33,825 nt of DNA. It comes from a virus (taxonomy: Duplodnaviria > Heunggongvirae > Uroviricota > Caudoviricetes). This document shows, piece by piece, positions 102 to 9,360 of this stretch (positions within the stretch are counted from its first letter, which is position 1; the number at the start of each line of letters is the position of its first letter). The notes below the pieces were generated by a model. It saw nothing but the letters and a program-made list of their open reading frames with translations, did not search any database and had not been told where the DNA came from. Location of the stretch: IMG/VR virus record IMGVR_UViG_3300045988_128742; one strand, given 5' to 3'. A program made the position numbers and the translations under genes.

Positions 102-1265
102 TTACACATCATTAGTACCTTCCTTATTTTTTGACTGGGACAAATTTGGGACCGATGGGTTCAGGATCGAGTCTATTTGCCGTGCGTGTTCGGTAAGGTG
201 ATTAGGTGCAAGGTGAGCATATCGACGAACCATTTCGATAGACTCCCAGCCTCCCATTTCCTGTAACACTGACAACGGGACTCCGGCTTGAACCAGCCAA
301 CTTGCCCAGGTGTGTCTCAAGTCGTGAAATCTGAAATCATCAATACCTGCTCGTCTCAGCGCCGCTTTCCAGGCTGTGTTTGCGTCATACCGCATCTTCC
401 TGACCGTTGGCGCTTTCGTTCCGTCTGGTTTGGTACAGCTTTCCTTGTACACAAATACCCAACGGTGATGATTCCCGATTTGTTTTTTCAATACGCGACA
501 TGCAGTATCATTCAGCGCAACGCCAATTGCGCGGTTTGATTTACTCTCTTCCGGGTTTATCCATGCCACCCGGCGCTGCATATCTATTTGTTGCCATTCA
601 AGGTTGATGATGTTCGAGCGTCTTAAGCCTGTTGCCAGTGCAAATTCAACAACAGACTTTAATGGCTCCGGACATTCATCAATCAGCCTTTGTGCTTCAT
701 GGGGCTCCAGCCAGCGGATCCGTTTATTCTTTGGTTGAGGCACTTTAATAATTGGTGCCTTATCCAGCATTTTCCATTCACGCTCTGCGGCTCTTAGTAG
801 GGCCTTTATAAATGAAAGATGCGTAGCCTTCGTTGCAACGGACGCTGGTTTTGGCGTGTATTCTGGAACAGGTTTCCCTTTTTTTCTGCATGCTTCTGCC
901 CTGAGTTTCCAGTTTTCCTCATGACGCCGGTTCGTCATTTTCTGCATTGCTGAATAAATTTTTGATTCAGTAATGTCTCTTAGTTGCATTCCTGCGAAAT
1001 GTTGAAGCCAGAATCCGATCCGGCTTTTGTCATCGTCCAGTGATTTTTTATGTGCTTTCTCTTCAAGCCACCTGACACACGCTTCCTCGAACGTTATATC
1101 AGGTATTTCACCAAGTTTGCTGACCCGCCATGCTTCAGCCTTTAGCTTGTCATGGAGTTCTGTCGCCTGCCTTTTGTCCTTTGTTCCAAGAGACTGTTTA
1201 AATCTTTTACCGTTCGGCAATGTGAAACTGGCGTACCATATTTCACCTCTGCGGAAGAGTGACAT
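102..1265 (-). CDS. int: Tyrosine site-specific integrase, P22-type
   Basis: 387-aa ORF ending 15 bp from the tRNA 3' end. C-terminal catalytic motifs HDLRHTWAS and VRRYAHL; N-terminus [14 protein letters not shown] matches the P22 Int family as I recall it. ATG at 1265 with GAGGAAAG Shine-Dalgarno (SD) upstream. Confidence 0.95.
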
Positions 1266-3638: not shown

Positions 3639-3747
3639 TTCATACACCTGCTTTAACATGAGTGCCTGGTGGCACAACATGACTCAACGAATCATCCTGG
3701 ACTTCATATGCCCCAGGCGGCTACTTCGTGGGCGTCCTGCCTGTACG

Positions 3748-3792
3748 TTGTTTCGCTTGGGTACATTATGTATCTCAAAGGTACATTGTCAA
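3748..3792 (-). promoter_or_regulatory. Predicted PL-like leftward promoter with two operator-like sites
   Basis: On the minus strand: -35 TTGACA (3792-3787), 16-bp spacer, -10 CATAAT (3770-3765). Overlapping operator-like sites ATGTATC-N5-GGTACAT (3768-3786) and TTGTTTC-N5-GGTACAT (3748-3766) resemble the OR palindrome. Confidence 0.5.
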
Positions 3793-3795
3793 GTA

Positions 3796-3820
3796 TAAAA
3801 AAACCTGCCGAAGCAGGTTC
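3796..3820 (-). terminator. Intrinsic terminator downstream of cI
   Basis: Minus-strand RNA: stem ACCTGC / GCAGGT with UUCG tetraloop followed by seven U; lies 12 bp past the cI stop. Confidence 0.7.
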
Positions 3821-3831
3821 ATAAACATTGA

Positions 3832-4506
3832 TTAGGCTTTGATTTTGTATCTTCTTGGTTTTCCTGAGAAAATCACTGTACCAATTATAGAGCAATTACC
3901 GTTGATCTTAATGTAAGGCTCAGGCCAGTTTGGGTTTAACGCTTTGAGATAACGCTGTGTCCCATCTTCTATCAACCTTTTGAAGGTGGTTTCGCCTGTA
4001 TCGTGCATCAATGCAATAACGTCGTCACCGTGGCAGGCAGGTACTTCAGGATCGACAAAAATCATGTCTCCCGGGCGGTACTCATCAATCATTGAATCAC
4101 CTATCACCCGCAAGATATAAGTCATTTCCCCACAGGGTACAGGGCAGGGATACGTTTCTGCTGTGCTCAAATCAACCTCAGAATATCCAACTTCTTTCCA
4201 TGCTCCGGCCTGTACCCATGATATGACAGGGACTAATGTGATTTGTTTATTAGTGATTGAAACATCAGGTTTTTTTGTGATGTTCGTTGTCTGGTGTTCT
4301 TGATCGAGCCATCCGACAGGCAGGTCGAAACATTTTTCGATGTGTCGTGCCATGCTGTCACCGATATTTTTAGTAGCACCATCTCCCATAAACCTGCTGG
4401 TCTGGGTTGGCTCGCGATCAATCATAGTGGCAAAGGAAGAATTCCCGCCAACACCATCTCTCAGTTTTCTGGCGTTAGACCGCCGGATGTCATGGATTGT
4501 TTTCAT
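3832..4506 (-). CDS. cI: CI-type prophage repressor (N-terminal HTH, C-terminal S24 LexA-like autopeptidase domain)
   Basis: 224 aa; C-terminal domain has the Ser (GDSM) and Lys (TFKRL) dyad context typical of LexA/CI autocleavage; divergent from cro across an operator-rich intergenic region. No SD upstream of the ATG. Confidence 0.85.
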   Translation of the reverse strand: MKTIHDIRRSNARKLRDGVGGNSSFATMIDREPTQTSRFMGDGATKNIGDSMARHIEKCFDLPVGWLDQEHQTTNITKKPDVSITNKQITLVPVISWVQAGAWKEVGYSEVDLSTAETYPCPVPCGEMTYILRVIGDSMIDEYRPGDMIFVDPEVPACHGDDVIALMHDTGETTFKRLIEDGTQRYLKALNPNWPEPYIKINGNCSIIGTVIFSGKPRRYKIKA

Positions 4507-4596
4507 AACGAAATTAAAACCCTTGTACCGTTAAGGTACAAGTATCTTGAAGGTTCATTTCAATCATGTAATATGTACACCGGAGGTACATATTGT
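4507..4596. promoter_or_regulatory. OR-like region with divergent PR and PRM promoters and palindromic operators
   Basis: 21-bp perfect palindrome CTTGTACCGTTAAGGTACAAG (4522-4542); second site TGTACACCGGAGGTACA (4574-4590). Plus-strand PR: -35 TTGAAG (4547-4552), 16-bp spacer, -10 TAATAT (4569-4574). Minus-strand PRM candidate: -35 TTGTAC (within operator), 17 bp, -10 TTTAAT (4518-4513), 6 nt before the cI ATG. Confidence 0.6.
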
Positions 4597-4797
4597 ATGA
4601 AAGCGTATTGGGACTCTTTAACCAAAGAACAGCAGGGCGAGTTGGCCGGAAAAGTTGGCTCAACACCTGGCTACTTACGGCTGGTTTTCAATGGCTATAA
4701 AAAAGCCAGTTTTGTGCTGGCTAAAAAACTTGAGCAATGCACGTCAGGTGCAATTACGAAATCTGACTTAAGACCGGATATCTATCCGAAAGATTAG
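4597..4797 (+). CDS. cro: Cro-like HTH repressor (66 aa)
   Basis: Small ORF divergent from cI; GGAGG SD 8 nt upstream of ATG 4597; helix-turn-helix-like segment QGELAGKVGSTPGYLRLVFNG. The track ORF 4294-4797 extends upstream in frame with no plausible start. Confidence 0.8.
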   Translation: MKAYWDSLTKEQQGELAGKVGSTPGYLRLVFNGYKKASFVLAKKLEQCTSGAITKSDLRPDIYPKD

Positions 4798-4828
4798 CAG
4801 AACACTTTCAATTTTTAACCACAGAACG

Positions 4829-5392
4829 ATGAGGCTAACCGTGGGTAAGCATCACTGGAAAATAGAAAAACAGCCTGAGTGGTACGTGAAAGCTGTCAGA
4901 AAAACTATCGCGGCGTTGCCGGGTGGTTACGCTGAAGCGGCTGACTGGCTCGATGTAACAGAAAACGCTTTATTCAACCGCCTTCGTGCAGATGGCGATC
5001 AGATTTTCCCGCTGGGATGGGCAATGGTTTTACAGCGTGCTGGTGGCACTCACTTCATTGCTGATGCTGTGGCGCAGTCTGCAAATGGCGTCTTTGTGTC
5101 TCTTCCTGACGTGGAGGATGTGGACAACGCCGATATCAACCAACGCCTGCTGGAAGTCATTGAACAGATCGGCAGTTATTCAAAACAGATTCGTTCAGCA
5201 ATTGAAGACGGTGTAGTGGAACCGCATGAGAAGACAGCAATTAACGATGAGCTGTACCTCTCAATTTCGAAGCTGCAGGAGCATGCAGCACTGGTCTACA
5301 AAATCTTTTGCGTTTCAGAAAGTAGTGACGCCCGCGAGTGTGCAGCTCCGGGCGCCGTGGCGTGTCGTGACTGTGGAGAAACTAACGCATGA
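4829..5392 (+). CDS. CII-like regulatory protein (possible YdaT/CII family)
   Basis: 187-aa ORF immediately after cro, the canonical cII position; family assignment from memory only. Alternative GTG start at 4841 has a better SD (GAGG). Confidence 0.5.
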
Positions 5393-5727
5393 ACAGTTTA
5401 ACAACACACTACCGTCGCTCGCAACTGATTGCGCTTCCTGTACCGGGTGGAAAAGCGAAGGTGGAGTATTGCTATGCAGTAAATGTACCAGGTGACAGGG
5501 AAATTGTAACCCACAGCTTTGCAGAGTGGGCTGTGGGTGATTTCAACCGGCAGAAGGAGACAGTCCTTTGCGACAAGTTAACCGCTGGTTCAAAGATCAC
5601 TACGGAGTGCCCGTCAGAGTCATTCGTTGGGAACCGGAAACACAACGGGTTATCTACCTCCGCGAAGGCTATGAGCATGAGTGCTTCAGTCCGCTCGAAC
5701 AGTTTCGTCGTAAATTCAGGGAAATAG
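5389..5727 (+). CDS. Hypothetical protein (112 aa)
   Basis: ORF whose ATG overlaps the upstream stop as ATGA; ends 10 bp before the replication gene. Low-complexity C-terminus lowers confidence. Confidence 0.4.
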
Positions 5728-5736
5728 AGGTCGGTC

Positions 5737-6678
5737 ATGAGCACTAAATTAACCGGCTATGTATGGGATGGTTGCGCAGCGTCAGGCATGAAATTATCCA
5801 GCGTGGCAATTATGGCCCGCCTGGCTGATTTCAGTAATGACGAAGGTGTGTGCTGGCCATCAATTGAAACCATTGCCCGCCAGATTGGCGCGGGGATGAG
5901 TACCGTCAGAACGGCTATCGCACGGCTGGAAGCAGAAGGCTGGTTAACGCGTAAGGCGCGTCGCCAGGGTAACCGCAATGCGTCGAATGTTTATCAGCTT
6001 AACGTTGCGAAGCTTCAGGCAGCGGCATTTTCTCAACTGTCAGATTCTGACCCGTCAAAATCTGACGCATCAAAATCTGACCCGTCAAAATTTGATGCGT
6101 CGAAATCTGGCAAAAAAGCGGGTTTTCACCCGTCAGAATCTGGCGGGGATCCGTCAGTAAAATCAAAACATGATCCGTCAGATAAAAAACCTTCTCGTCC
6201 GGACGCTTCGCAACCGGACACGCAGACGGCTGAACAGGATTTTTTAACTCGCCATCCTGATGCGGTTGTATTCAGCCCTAAAAAACGCCAGTGGGGGACG
6301 CAGGATGATTTGACCTGCGCACAGTGGCTCTGGAAAAAAATCATCGCCCTGTACGAGCAGGCTGCCGAATGTGACGGCGAGGTGGTTCGTCCCAAAGAAC
6401 CGAACTGGACAGCCTGGGCAAACGAAATTCGCCTGATGTGTGTGCAGGATGGTCGTACTCACAAACAAATCTGCGAGATGTACAGCCGCGTCAGCCGCGA
6501 TCCGTTCTGGTGCCGTAACGTGCTCAGCCCGTCGAAGCTGCGGGAAAAATGGGATGAGCTTTCCCTGCGCTTATCGCCGTCCGTCAGCACATACACAGAA
6601 AAACGTGAAGATCCGTACTTCAAATCCAGTTACGACAACGTGGACTACAGCCAGATCCCGGCAGGATTCAGGGGGTGA
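5737..6678 (+). CDS. Replication initiator protein (lambda O-like role; N-terminal winged-helix DNA-binding domain) with internal origin
   Basis: 313 aa; N-terminal HTH-like region SIETIARQIGAGMSTVRTAIARLEAEGWL; central tandem peptide repeat DPSKS/DASKS encoded by DNA iterons; GAGG SD upstream of ATG. Confidence 0.75.
   Translation: MSTKLTGYVWDGCAASGMKLSSVAIMARLADFSNDEGVCWPSIETIARQIGAGMSTVRTAIARLEAEGWLTRKARRQGNRNASNVYQLNVAKLQAAAFSQLSDSDPSKSDASKSDPSKFDASKSGKKAGFHPSESGGDPSVKSKHDPSDKKPSRPDASQPDTQTAEQDFLTRHPDAVVFSPKKRQWGTQDDLTCAQWLWKKIIALYEQAAECDGEVVRPKEPNWTAWANEIRLMCVQDGRTHKQICEMYSRVSRDPFWCRNVLSPSKLREKWDELSLRLSPSVSTYTEKREDPYFKSSYDNVDYSQIPAGFRG
6037..6190 (+). repeat. Iteron array (candidate phage origin of replication) inside the replication initiator gene
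   Basis: Five abutting 15-bp direct repeats (6037-6111), approximate consensus CCGTCAAAATCTGAC, plus three further spaced copies (6129-6144, 6152-6165, 6175-6190) and an adjacent A-rich tract. Confidence 0.7.
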
Positions 6679-6680
6679 TC

Positions 6681-7169
6681 ATGAGTCTTTTGAATGAAGT
6701 TCAGAAATTCATTGAAGCCCATCCGGGGTGTACTTCCGGAGACATTGCGGATGCTTTTGCAGGTTACTCACGGCAGCGCGTTCTGCAGTCAGCAAGCAAG
6801 TTACGTCAGAGTGGGCGTGTGGCTCACCGTTGTGAAGGAGATACACGCAGACATTTCTCGCGCCTGACTGAGAGAGCGCAGGAGCCGGAACCACAACCAG
6901 TTCGTGAAACCAGACCTGTGCGCAAGTTCTATGTCGGCACTAACGACCCCCGGGTGATTTTGTGCCTGACCCGCCAGGCTGAAGAACTGGAGTCGAGGGG
7001 CTTATACCGTCGTGCTGCAACGGTGTGGATGGCGGCATTCCGTGAAAGCCACTCCCAGCCAGAACGAAACAATTTTCTGGCGCGTCGTGAACGGTGTTTA
7101 CGGAAAAGCAGTAAGCGGGCTGCATCAGGTGAAGAGTGGTATCTCTCAGGGAATTACGTGGGGGCTTAA
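6681..7169 (+). CDS. Putative regulator with PerC-like C-terminal motif
   Basis: Track ORF starts at GTG 6675; ATG at 6681 preferred. C-terminal segment LESRGLYRRAATVWMAAF...ERNNFLARRERCL resembles the PerC/Pch family as recalled; N-terminal half looks winged-helix-like. Confidence 0.45.
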   Translation: MSLLNEVQKFIEAHPGCTSGDIADAFAGYSRQRVLQSASKLRQSGRVAHRCEGDTRRHFSRLTERAQEPEPQPVRETRPVRKFYVGTNDPRVILCLTRQAEELESRGLYRRAATVWMAAFRESHSQPERNNFLARRERCLRKSSKRAASGEEWYLSGNYVGA

Positions 7170-7822
7170 TGAGTAATAAATATTGCCAGGCGCTGGCGGA
7201 ACTGCGGAACAAACCAGCCCATGAACTGAAGGAAGTGGGCGATCAGTGGCGCACGCCGGACAACATTTTCTGGGGAATTAACACCCTGTTTGGCCCGTTT
7301 GTTCTGGATCTGTTCACTGACGGTGATAACGCCAAATGTGCTGCGTATTACACGGCGGAAGACAACGCGCTGGCGCATGACTGGTCAGAACGCCTTGCGG
7401 AGCTTAAAGGTGCTGCCTTTGGTAATCCCCCATACAGCCGCGCCAGTCAGCATGAGGGGCAATACATCACCGGCATGCGTTACATCATGAAGCATGCCAG
7501 TGCCATGCGTGATAAAGGCGGGCGCTATGTTTTCCTGATCAAAGCTGCCACCAGCGAAGTGTGGTGGCCGGAAGATGCAGATCATATTGCTTTTATTCGC
7601 GGGCGTATTGGTTTTGAACTGCCTGCCTGGTTTATCCCGAAGGATGAGAAGCAGGTGCCGACAGGCGCTTTCTTCGCTGGTGCTATTGCTGTTTTCGACA
7701 AGACCTGGAAGGGACCGGCAATCAGCTACATCGGGCGCGATGAACTTGAGGCATGTGGTGAGGCCTTTCTGGCGCAGGTTCGCCAGCAGGCAGAAAAACT
7801 GGTCAGGGAGATGGCGGCATGA
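7169..7822 (+). CDS. Phage N6-adenine DNA methyltransferase (Dam-like orphan MTase)
   Basis: Contains the NPPY catalytic motif (AAFGNPPYSR). ATG at 7169 overlaps the upstream stop as TAATG; the track ORF begins at an upstream GTG (7136). Confidence 0.8.
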   Translation: MSNKYCQALAELRNKPAHELKEVGDQWRTPDNIFWGINTLFGPFVLDLFTDGDNAKCAAYYTAEDNALAHDWSERLAELKGAAFGNPPYSRASQHEGQYITGMRYIMKHASAMRDKGGRYVFLIKAATSEVWWPEDADHIAFIRGRIGFELPAWFIPKDEKQVPTGAFFAGAIAVFDKTWKGPAISYIGRDELEACGEAFLAQVRQQAEKLVREMAA

Positions 7823-8145
7823 CGACGTTAACTCAATGCCAGCAGCAGGTGCTGGATATGCTGATTTCTTATCAGAAAGAACGTGGCTTCCCGCCAACCA
7901 ATCAGGAGGTGGCAACCATGCTGGGATACCGTTCAGTGAATGCAGCGGTGGAGCATCTTCGCGCACTGGAGAAAAAAGGCGTCATCACGATAAAGCGTGG
8001 CGTGGCCCGGGGCATCACGCTTCATACCGCGGTGAAGGACGACGACAGCGAGGCGGTCGGGATTATCCGCGCACTGCTTGCCGGTGAGGCAAACGCCAGG
8101 CTGCGTGCAGCCCACTGGTTACATGAGAGGGGCCTGAAAGTATGA
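7819..8145 (+). CDS. LexA N-terminal DNA-binding-domain-only protein (no S24 peptidase domain)
   Basis: 108 aa. Residues 1-70 align convincingly by eye with the E. coli LexA winged-helix domain (QQQVLDMLISYQKERGFPPTNQEVATMLGYRSVNAAVEHLRALEKKGVI vs LexA [50 protein letters not shown]); the C-terminus has no Ser/Lys dyad. ATGA overlap with the upstream gene. Confidence 0.75.
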   Translation: MTTLTQCQQQVLDMLISYQKERGFPPTNQEVATMLGYRSVNAAVEHLRALEKKGVITIKRGVARGITLHTAVKDDDSEAVGIIRALLAGEANARLRAAHWLHERGLKV

Positions 8146-8531
8146 AGCTAATACTGCCTTTTCCGCCCAGCGTGAACACGTACTGGCGACACCCCAACAA
8201 AGGGGCGCTTGCAGGTAAGAGCCTGATAAGCGCGGCGGGGCGAAAATTCCAGAGCGCAGCGTGTGCAGCCATCATTGAGCAGTTACGTCGTTTGCCGAAA
8301 CCAACGTCGGCACCAGCTTCAGTGGAGATCGTGTTGTTTCCTCCGGATAACCGGCTTCGCGATCTGGACAACTATAACAAGGCGCTGTTTGACGCCCTGA
8401 CCCACGCGGGTGTGTGGGTGGACGACAGTCAGGTGAAAAGAATGCTGGTGGAGTGGGGACCGGTTATCCCGGAAGGGAAGGTCGAGATCACTATCAGTAA
8501 GTACGAGAAAACGGCGGGTGCAGCCGTCTGA
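8142..8531 (+). CDS. rusA: RusA-family Holliday junction resolvase
   Basis: 129 aa; conserved core RLRDLDNYNKALFDALTHAGVWVDDSQV matches the RusA catalytic-Asp region from memory. Confidence 0.8.
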   Translation: MKLILPFPPSVNTYWRHPNKGALAGKSLISAAGRKFQSAACAAIIEQLRRLPKPTSAPASVEIVLFPPDNRLRDLDNYNKALFDALTHAGVWVDDSQVKRMLVEWGPVIPEGKVEITISKYEKTAGAAV

Positions 8532-8550
8532 TTAAGAGGAGAAACGAAGT

Positions 8551-9360
8551 ATGAATAATCTGATGGTCATTGATGGTATTGAAGTTCGTCGTGATGCTTA
8601 TGGGCGTTACAGCCTGAACGATCTGCATCGCGCAGCAGTAGCATCTGGTGCAAATGCCAGAACCAAGGAGCCAGGAAAGTTTCTTTCCAGCCAACAAACT
8701 GTTGAGCTTGTTCATGAATTAACCAACACCCAGAATTTGGGTGTTGACCCGGTGAGTGTGATTCATGGGGGAAATGAACGGGGAACGTATGTCTGTAAGG
8801 AACTGGTGTATGCCTATGCAATGTGGATCAGCCCGTCATTCCATCTGAAGGTGATCCGTACTTTCGATATGGTAACCAGCGCGCCGGAAAAGTTATCCGG
8901 ACAGGCTGCTGACAAGATGCAGGCTGGCGTGATCCTGCTGGACTTTATGCGCCGGGAGTTAAATCTGTCTAACTCTTCAGTGCTTGGTGCCTGTCAGAAA
9001 CTCCAGGAGGCTGTTGGCTTACCGAATCTGGCACCGCGCTATGCCATTGATGCTCCTGCTGACGCGCCTGATGGCTCAAGCCGCCCCACGCTGTCACTGA
9101 GTGCACTGCTGAAGCAGTATGGTATTCGCCTGACAGCTAATCAGGCATATCACCAGATGGCGAAGCTGGGGATCGTTGAACAACGCGAACGATACAGCCG
9201 TACCGCGATTAACAACATCAAAAAATTCTGGTCGCTGACGGCGAAAGGCTGCATGTTCGGCAAGAACATCACCAGTCCTGCAAATCCGCGCGAGACGCAG
9301 CCGCATTTCTTCGAATCCCGATTCCCTGAGCTGTTAAAGCTGCTCGATACCGTTCATTGA
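8551..9360 (+). CDS. KilA-N domain protein
   Basis: 269 aa; N-terminal segment IDGIEVRRDAYGRYSLNDLHRAA resembles the KilA-N DNA-binding domain; strong SD (AAGAGGAGAAA) upstream. Confidence 0.6.
   Translation: MNNLMVIDGIEVRRDAYGRYSLNDLHRAAVASGANARTKEPGKFLSSQQTVELVHELTNTQNLGVDPVSVIHGGNERGTYVCKELVYAYAMWISPSFHLKVIRTFDMVTSAPEKLSGQAADKMQAGVILLDFMRRELNLSNSSVLGACQKLQEAVGLPNLAPRYAIDAPADAPDGSSRPTLSLSALLKQYGIRLTANQAYHQMAKLGIVEQRERYSRTAINNIKKFWSLTAKGCMFGKNITSPANPRETQPHFFESRFPELLKLLDTVH

Follow-up and report, generated by a model that had tools for sequence, protein, structure and literature searches.

Does the short gap between two divergent genes of a tailed-phage genome act as a lambda-like switch, and through which operators and promoters? 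The stretch analysed here, which we call the window, comprises 33,825 nucleotides of Caudoviricetes DNA, and its positions 4507–4596 are exactly the 90-bp intergenic gap between a leftward open reading frame (3832–4506) and a rightward one (4597–4797). A preliminary description read this gap as an OR-like switch with two operators, a rightward promoter for cro and a leaderless cI transcript. Our analysis makes it very likely that 4507–4596 serves as the right operator/promoter region (OR) in a lambdoid immunity module of the e14/SfV type, which is also the best explanation of the region as a whole. The region is already known: it is annotated in SfV and occurs verbatim in Escherichia coli K-12, where a leaderless repressor mRNA has been documented. 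We regard it as ordinary, because of this earlier annotation and because the leaderless mRNA was shown experimentally on the identical K-12 sequence.

Identity of the flanking genes and layout of the operators

The leftward gene encodes a protein with an N-terminal helix-turn-helix domain and a C-terminal S24 autopeptidase domain (Pfam Peptidase_S24, E 1.5e-26). An alignment of its C-terminal half with lambda CI gives 35% identity, and residues A100-G101, S138 and K176 align with the cleavage site and the catalytic Ser and Lys of lambda CI, while the N-terminal 76 residues match a Salmonella phage repressor weakly (PDB 5d50, E 0.0018). At the DNA level, the gene is ~99% identical to K-12 ymfK. 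The product of the rightward, cro-like gene has weak Pfam matches to YdaS_toxin and HTH_3, and its PDB hits, also weak, are to ‘phage antirepressor protein Cro’; alignment to lambda Cro showed no sequence similarity. RefSeq E. coli genomes name these two genes and the following CII-like gene ymfK, ymfT and ymfL, the names of the e14 immunity genes, of which ymfK and ymfT also go by cohE and croE.

The locus thus has the parts of a lambdoid switch: an S24-type cI gene diverging from a small helix-turn-helix cro-like gene, several partially symmetric operators of one consensus that overlap both divergent promoters, and the recurrence of that consensus at a further early promoter, directed leftward (OL/pL). 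The proposed OR-like switch between cI and cro is supported by the gene identities, by the recurring motif at OL and by the conservation of the operator arms described below. Coordinates of all features are collected in Table 1.

Table 1 Features of the immunity region, in window coordinates. Conservation values refer to 19 sequences.
Feature	Position	Strand	Sequence, basis or conservation
OL2-like weak operator	3749–3765		TGTTTC-GCTTG-GGTACA; 2 mismatches; covers predicted pL start (near 3758)
pL-like leftward promoter	3765–3792	−	TTGACA-16-CATAAT; 11/12 consensus; promoter scan
OL1-like operator	3769–3785		TGTATC-TCAAA-GGTACA; motif match, between pL −35 and −10
Terminator-like hairpin 3′ of cI stop codon	3801–3820	−	Terminator scan
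cI repressor gene, homologue of e14 ymfK/cohE	3832–4506	−	224 aa; ORF call, Pfam, lambda CI alignment
cI maintenance promoter (pRM equivalent)	4506–4541	−	TTGTAC (4541–4536), 17 bp, TTTAAT (4518–4513), start 4506
6 nt between cI −10 and ATG	4507–4512		0.27 bits per column
OR3-position operator	4524–4540		TGTACC-GTTAA-GGTACA; 0 mismatches; core of the 4522–4542 palindrome
OR3 left arm	4524–4529		1.87 bits per column
OR3 spacer	4530–4534		0.46 bits per column
OR3 right arm	4535–4540		2.0 bits per column
Probable weak OR2-position operator	4541–4557		AGTATC-TTGAA-GGTTCA; 3 mismatches; repeat family D1
Predicted rightward promoter pR of cro	4547–4574	+	TTGAAG (4547–4552), 16 bp, TAATAT (4569–4574)
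OR1-position operator	4574–4590		TGTACA-CCGGA-GGTACA; 1 mismatch
OR1 left arm	4574–4579		1.67 bits per column
OR1 right arm	4585–4590		2.0 bits per column
cro Shine-Dalgarno GGAGG	4582–4586	+	Within OR1 spacer, 10 nt before ATG
cro-like gene, homologue of e14 ymfT/croE	4597–4797	+	66 aa, helix-turn-helix
CII-like regulator, Phage_CP76 family, homologue of e14 ymfL	4829–5392	+	PF06892, E 1.4e-13; next in rightward operon

The perfect 21-bp palindromic operator sequence of the preliminary description, CTTGTACC-GTTAA-GGTACAAG, is present at 4522–4542 on direct reading, with 8-bp arms and a 5-bp spacer. Its second site, TGTAC-N7-GTACA, is likewise present at the OR1 position and extends to ATATGTAC-N7-GTACATAT at 4571–4593. 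A lone perfect palindrome with 8-bp arms is not rare in the window, where we counted 15 (nested ones included) against 5.2 ± 3.0 in dinucleotide shuffles, but the motif shared by the sites is rare: TGTACC-N5-GGTACA with at most one mismatch was found three times in the whole window against 0.05 expected, and none of 100 shuffles reached three. All three matches lie in the two intergenic regions flanking cI.

Both of the originally described operators are therefore real motif matches; a likely third, suggested by the comparison with relatives, had been missed between them. We propose that 4541–4557 is a probable weak OR2, a predicted binding site which differs from the consensus at three positions in the window, at two in most relatives and at two to four overall. 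Its right arm, GGTTCA (4552–4557), is invariant in 19 of 19 sequences, and its left arm is AGTACC in most relatives, although this conservation could partly stem from the two −35 elements that the site overlaps. By analogy with OL1 and OL2, we also looked for a fourth site 20 bp to the left of OR1; no relative has a further 17-mer with three or fewer mismatches anywhere else in the region. A match with two mismatches inside cI, at 4125–4141, was treated as chance.

Relative to the cI start, the OR3, OR2 and OR1 sites occupy −18 to −34, −35 to −51 and −68 to −84, respectively. OR3 covers the −35 element and the spacer of the cI promoter. OR2, at −40 to −24 of the predicted cro start, covers the −35 element of the cro promoter, and OR1, at −7 to +10, covers the last base of the pR −10 element together with the predicted cro start, its spacer containing the cro ribosome-binding site. 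OR3 and OR2 abut, with a centre-to-centre distance of 17 bp, and OR2 and OR1 are 33 bp apart. The statement that the described sites overlap the cro promoter thus holds for one of them: OR1 touches pR, whereas the palindrome lies over the cI −35 element and ends 4 bp upstream of the cro −35, clear of both pR hexamers.

On the other side of cI, the same arrangement recurs around a leftward promoter whose hexamers are invariant in relatives. Every relative has the sequence GGTACA-TTA-TGTAyC-N5-GGTACA-TTGTCAAG at OL, with an OL1 that is perfect or nearly so within the pL spacer and a weaker OL2 next to it. The OL1-like site has zero mismatches in most relatives and a variable spacer, while the OL2-like site keeps its right arm GGTACA and has a degenerate left arm. 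The terminator-like hairpin beyond the cI stop codon coincides with a putative rho-independent terminator annotated at the same place in SfV and Ayreon.

Transcription of cI and cro

The cI promoter was described as a weak minus-strand −35/−10 pair that stops 6 nt short of the cI ATG and is followed by no Shine-Dalgarno sequence, and direct reading confirms this as TTGTAC-17-TTTAAT, with the −10 hexamer ending 6 nt before the ATG at 4506. That the resulting mRNA is leaderless, as in lambda, agrees with published data. Romero et al. (2014) mapped the primary 5′ ends of MG1655 by differential RNA-seq (PMC4681348) and found only five mRNAs with a leader of less than 10 nt, three of which encode prophage regulators, e14 ymfK among them. 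The ymfK start is a class I site with a leader length of 0 in their Table S3 and is placed one nucleotide off in Table S2, meaning a leader of 0 or at most 1 nt (PMC4681348). This start was measured in K-12 e14, on sequence identical to that of the window, which is why we place the cI start at 4506; TTTAAT consequently becomes the −12 to −7 hexamer. The start thus falls at the ATG itself.

Several further observations agree with a leaderless cI. A Shine-Dalgarno-like tetramer 3–11 nt upstream of the ATG is absent in the window and in 18 of 19 relatives, ORF analysis showed that no alternative in-frame start exists upstream of 4506, and from Met1 onwards the amino-acid sequence is conserved although third codon positions drift. 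In 18 of 19 relatives, the motif nnnAAT is separated from the ATG by exactly 6 nt, and in the remaining one by 7 nt. We also considered whether another promoter on the minus strand might provide cI with a leader; inspection by eye found no acceptable −35/−10 pair, and the mapped start is decisive here. The text of Cappable-seq supplements, consulted for a second confirmation of the cI start and for the cro start, had no entry at the locus. The gene thus falls into the leaderless class of mobile-element repressors, along with lambda cI, Tn1721 tetR, racR, dicA and ymfK.

Two side observations concern this promoter and its start codon. The cI −10 element (4513–4518, minus strand) has the form TnTAAT, with T, C or G, but not A, at −11 in 17 of 19 relatives; the non-A base may keep the promoter weak or activator-dependent. 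In Hafnia phage yong2 (locus 1338–2012), the deposited cI starts at an internal Met (558 nt), whereas the reading frame conserved with the relatives begins 117 nt further upstream, at a leaderless-type ATG. Its N-terminal helix-turn-helix was probably cut off in annotation because there is no ribosome-binding site.

The rightward promoter, TTGAAG-16-TAATAT, is present as described, and its key positions are conserved: in relatives, the −35 keeps its TTG and the −10 its A2 and T6, the latter element appearing as TAATAT, CATAAT, TAGAAT or TATCCT. Calling it ‘good’ was, however, an overstatement, since only 8 of its 12 hexamer positions agree with the consensus and the promoter scan did not pick it up. 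The predicted cro start, at about 4581, gives a 16-nt leader that carries the GGAGG sequence, invariant in 19 relatives, where it lies 6–10 nt from the ATG. The MG1655 lysogen data contain no forward ymfT start site (PMC4681348), as expected if pR is repressed.

Downstream of cro, the operon controlled by pR includes, at 5389–5727 (plus strand), a homologue of e14 YmfM with 96% identity, which RefSeq annotates as a cell division inhibitor. The SOS-inducible division inhibitor sfiC has been reported to lie within the ymfN–ymfK region of e14 (PMC6206680). Ishihama's group describes YmfK as the “SOS-sensitive repressor” of e14 and lists CroE, for which the croE operon is given as target (PMC8249747).

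Other features of the early operon were noted in passing. Two reverse-strand start sites have been mapped at the e14 ymfL/ymfM junction, at K-12 v2 positions 1203046 and 1203132 (PMC4681348, Table S2). They correspond approximately to window positions 5396 and 5482 (minus strand), antisense to the CII-like gene and directed toward cro and cI, and could be an establishment (pRE-like) or an antisense promoter. A 14-nt direct repeat, TTTAACCA(A/C)AGAAC, occurs at 4617–4630 and 4814–4827 (plus strand; family D7, copies 93% identical), with one copy early in cro and the other in the cro–cII spacer, and may be due to chance. The rest of the early operon (5737–9360, plus strand) encodes an HTH_36 protein, a PerC-family activator, a Dam methyltransferase, RusA and a KilA-N protein. 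It also holds a 108-aa reading frame at 7819–8145 (plus strand) with the LexA DNA-binding domain only (PF01726, E 2.9e-19); since the S24 cleavage domain is missing from it, this could be a phage-borne, non-cleavable LexA look-alike.

Comparative footprint and alternative readings

For a comparative footprint of the intergenic region, one scan of species-representative genomes yielded 16 further loci with a cI that is 73–88% identical, to which Hafnia phage yong2 was added. The loci come from Pseudocitrobacter, Klebsiella, Atlantibacter, Leclercia, Phytobacter, Enterobacter, Pantoea, Trabulsiella, Kluyvera, Limnobaculum, Rahnella and Edwardsiella, among others, and the complete set comprises 19 distinct sequences (18 of them relatives from other Enterobacterales) from at least 14 genera. 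Their intergenic regions align without gaps. Operator arms are nearly invariant (1.6–2.0 bits), while spacers drift like synonymous sites, the four-fold synonymous positions of the cI N-terminal domain having 0.42 bits. Fixed arms among otherwise essentially saturated, unconstrained positions are the signature of an inverted repeat that is recognised by a protein. The N-terminal domain of cI is conserved in all relatives, including a REPTQ-x-SR segment that we assign as the likely recognition helix; its conservation is consistent with an unchanged operator half-site.

These data fit a switch in which a dimeric CI of the SOS-cleavable S24 autopeptidase type would recognise 17-bp sites through its N-terminal helix-turn-helix. 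The three sites at OR would be placed on the −10 edge and start of pR (OR1), on the pR −35 (the weak OR2) and on the −35 and spacer of the cI promoter (OR3). CI bound at OR1 and OR2, together with CI at the OL1 and OL2 sites on the far side of its gene, would turn off the lytic promoters, and CI at OR3 would limit its own synthesis. Because OR2 lies within 1 bp of the lambda OR2 position, CI bound there may also stimulate the weak cI promoter, a geometry compatible with lambda-like activation and, by that analogy, with positive autoregulation. In lytic growth, Cro would bind the same sites. Our search of the open literature turned up no footprinting, EMSA, ChIP or reporter experiments on the CI, Cro or operators of this immunity type.

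The most serious competitor to this model, though in our judgement an unlikely one, keeps only the strong sites (4524–4540, 4574–4590 and OL1) as true operators, so that CI would repress its own gene through the perfect palindrome on the cI −35 and cro through the operator at the cro start, with no positive autoregulation, and the conserved GGTTCAT/AGTAcC block would have another role. It draws on the perfect site at −18 to −34 of the mapped cI start, which is a repressing position, on the two to four mismatches that OR2 carries in every relative, and on centre spacings of 17 and 33 bp, unlike the 23 and 24 bp of lambda; moreover, OR2 partly overlaps the TTG of both −35 elements, which would be conserved anyway. 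Against it, promoter contacts do not account for the invariance of the GGTTCA arm in 19 of 19 sequences, since this arm falls within the pR spacer; the OR2 17-mer has only two mismatches in most relatives, at a fixed position, and no other 17-mer in the region comes within three. The coincidence of its distance from the cI start with that of lambda OR2, to within 1 bp, and the analogous pairing of a strong with a weak site at OL also favour the three-operator reading. A related, tentative idea, to which we give no greater weight, is that the e14/SfV switch is wired unlike lambda, with tight negative autoregulation and either obligatory help from an activator or looping between OL and OR in place of the lambda order of site filling. 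Such wiring could follow from a best operator that sits on the cI promoter and abuts a weak, ‘spoiled’ site (GGTTCA in 19 of 19), and from a cro start-site operator three helical turns away and a cI −10 that avoids A at −11.

Two readings that deny the palindromes any operator function fare far worse. The 21-bp palindrome could be a minus-strand RNA hairpin or intrinsic terminator upstream of cI that stops leftward transcripts coming through cro: the terminator scan flags an 8-bp stem followed by GGTTTTAATT, and the RNA fold has −13.1 kcal/mol with a z-score of −3.5. Yet the palindrome lies upstream of both the mapped cI start and the predicted cro start and is in neither primary transcript, and its T-rich tail is not kept in relatives, where the 8 nt that follow contain one to five T but no run of them. 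It is therefore not a hairpin with a conserved U-run inside a transcript, and on these two grounds we reject the terminator reading as very improbable. The same arms moreover occur at 4574–4590 and 3769–3785 without terminator context, and establishment transcripts would serve no purpose if they ended just before cI. Least credible of all is the notion that the palindromes arose by chance in an intergenic region rich in AT. About five perfect palindromes with 8-bp arms are indeed expected in a window of this size, but chance does not account for three copies of one motif where 0.05 are expected, for their placement at the promoters flanking cI, or for arms that stay nearly invariant in 19 sequences while the spacers are free, and the comparative data refute it. 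The three-operator switch therefore remains our preferred reading.

Relationship to e14, SfV and lambda

Along its full length, the intergenic region 4507–4596 is 100% identical to the ymfK(cohE)–ymfT(croE) gap of the e14 prophage in K-12 MG1655. Identity to MG1655 over 3722–4830 is about 99%; over 3700–4900 it is 98–99% to Shigella phages SfIV and SfV and 96% to phage cdtI and to further phages, a set of Stx2c-converting ones among them, while the intergenic region itself is 95–100% identical to SfV, SfIV, cdtI and Stx2c phages. Near-identical cI, cro and operator DNA assign the window to the e14/SfV immunity group and imply the same immunity specificity across it. The SfV GenBank record (U82619.2) already marks a ‘putative operator region’ between cI and cro, at the equivalent of 4523–4591, and labels both genes as repressors. 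The genes are called cI and Cro in the SfIV paper, which reports no N, cII or cIII homologues in SfV and SfIV (PMC3851460). SfV and SfIV differ from the window by a few substitutions within the operator sites. In SfV, the palindrome reads TTTGTACC-GATAG-GGTACAAG, with the outermost pair of the 21-bp palindrome broken, and OR1 is TGTATA-TCGGA-GGTACA in place of TGTACA-CCGGA-GGTACA. Mehta, Casjens and Krishnaswamy reportedly predicted the binding sites of the e14 repressor and Cro in silico in 2004.

The window phage is nevertheless not e14 itself but a mosaic relative that carries the e14/SfV immunity cassette. An IntE-like integrase was ruled out by comparison, the window integrase being unrelated to the e14 enzyme, and a full set of head and tail genes, like those of phages vB_EcoM-689R6 and SfII, sets the window apart from the 15-kb remnant that is e14. 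The mosaic structure was also observed over a wider scale (102–1265, minus strand, and 5000–29000), combining e14/SfV immunity and early genes with that unrelated integrase. Its head, sheath, tape-measure and tail region is complete, with 97% identity to vB_EcoM-689R6 and SfII, and the prophage looks intact, unlike e14.

The immunity type is very common, which limits the significance of this particular copy. Matches to the immunity region occur in 2507 of 5426 complete E. coli genomes, and in 1323 of these 5426 a match covers at least 80% of the 1.2-kb query. The type is present in Stx2c-converting, cdtI and Shigella serotype-converting phages, so the switch controls the induction of medically relevant prophages; with a ymfM homologue in the pR operon, it also controls the SOS-inducible division inhibitor YmfM.

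Like lambda, the window has cI and cro in a divergent arrangement and repeats 17-bp operators of partial symmetry at both OR and OL. In both, the cI mRNA starts at the AUG, with a −10 element ending 6 nt upstream, and the CI C-terminal domains are homologous, with cleavage site and catalytic residues in common. The operator sequence is unrelated, the CI N-terminal domain and Cro have no sequence similarity to those of lambda, and CII belongs to the CP76 family, unlike that of lambda. Measured from the annotated operators and cI start of lambda, OR3, OR2 and OR1 there lie at −11 to −27, −34 to −50 and −58 to −74, so that OR2 is the one site that the two switches place within 1 bp of each other. 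With centre spacings of 17 and 33 bp, where lambda has 23 and 24 bp, lambda-style pairwise cooperativity cannot be assumed for the window. Finally, the site with the best consensus is at the OR3 position, over the cI promoter, the reverse of the order of intrinsic affinities in lambda.
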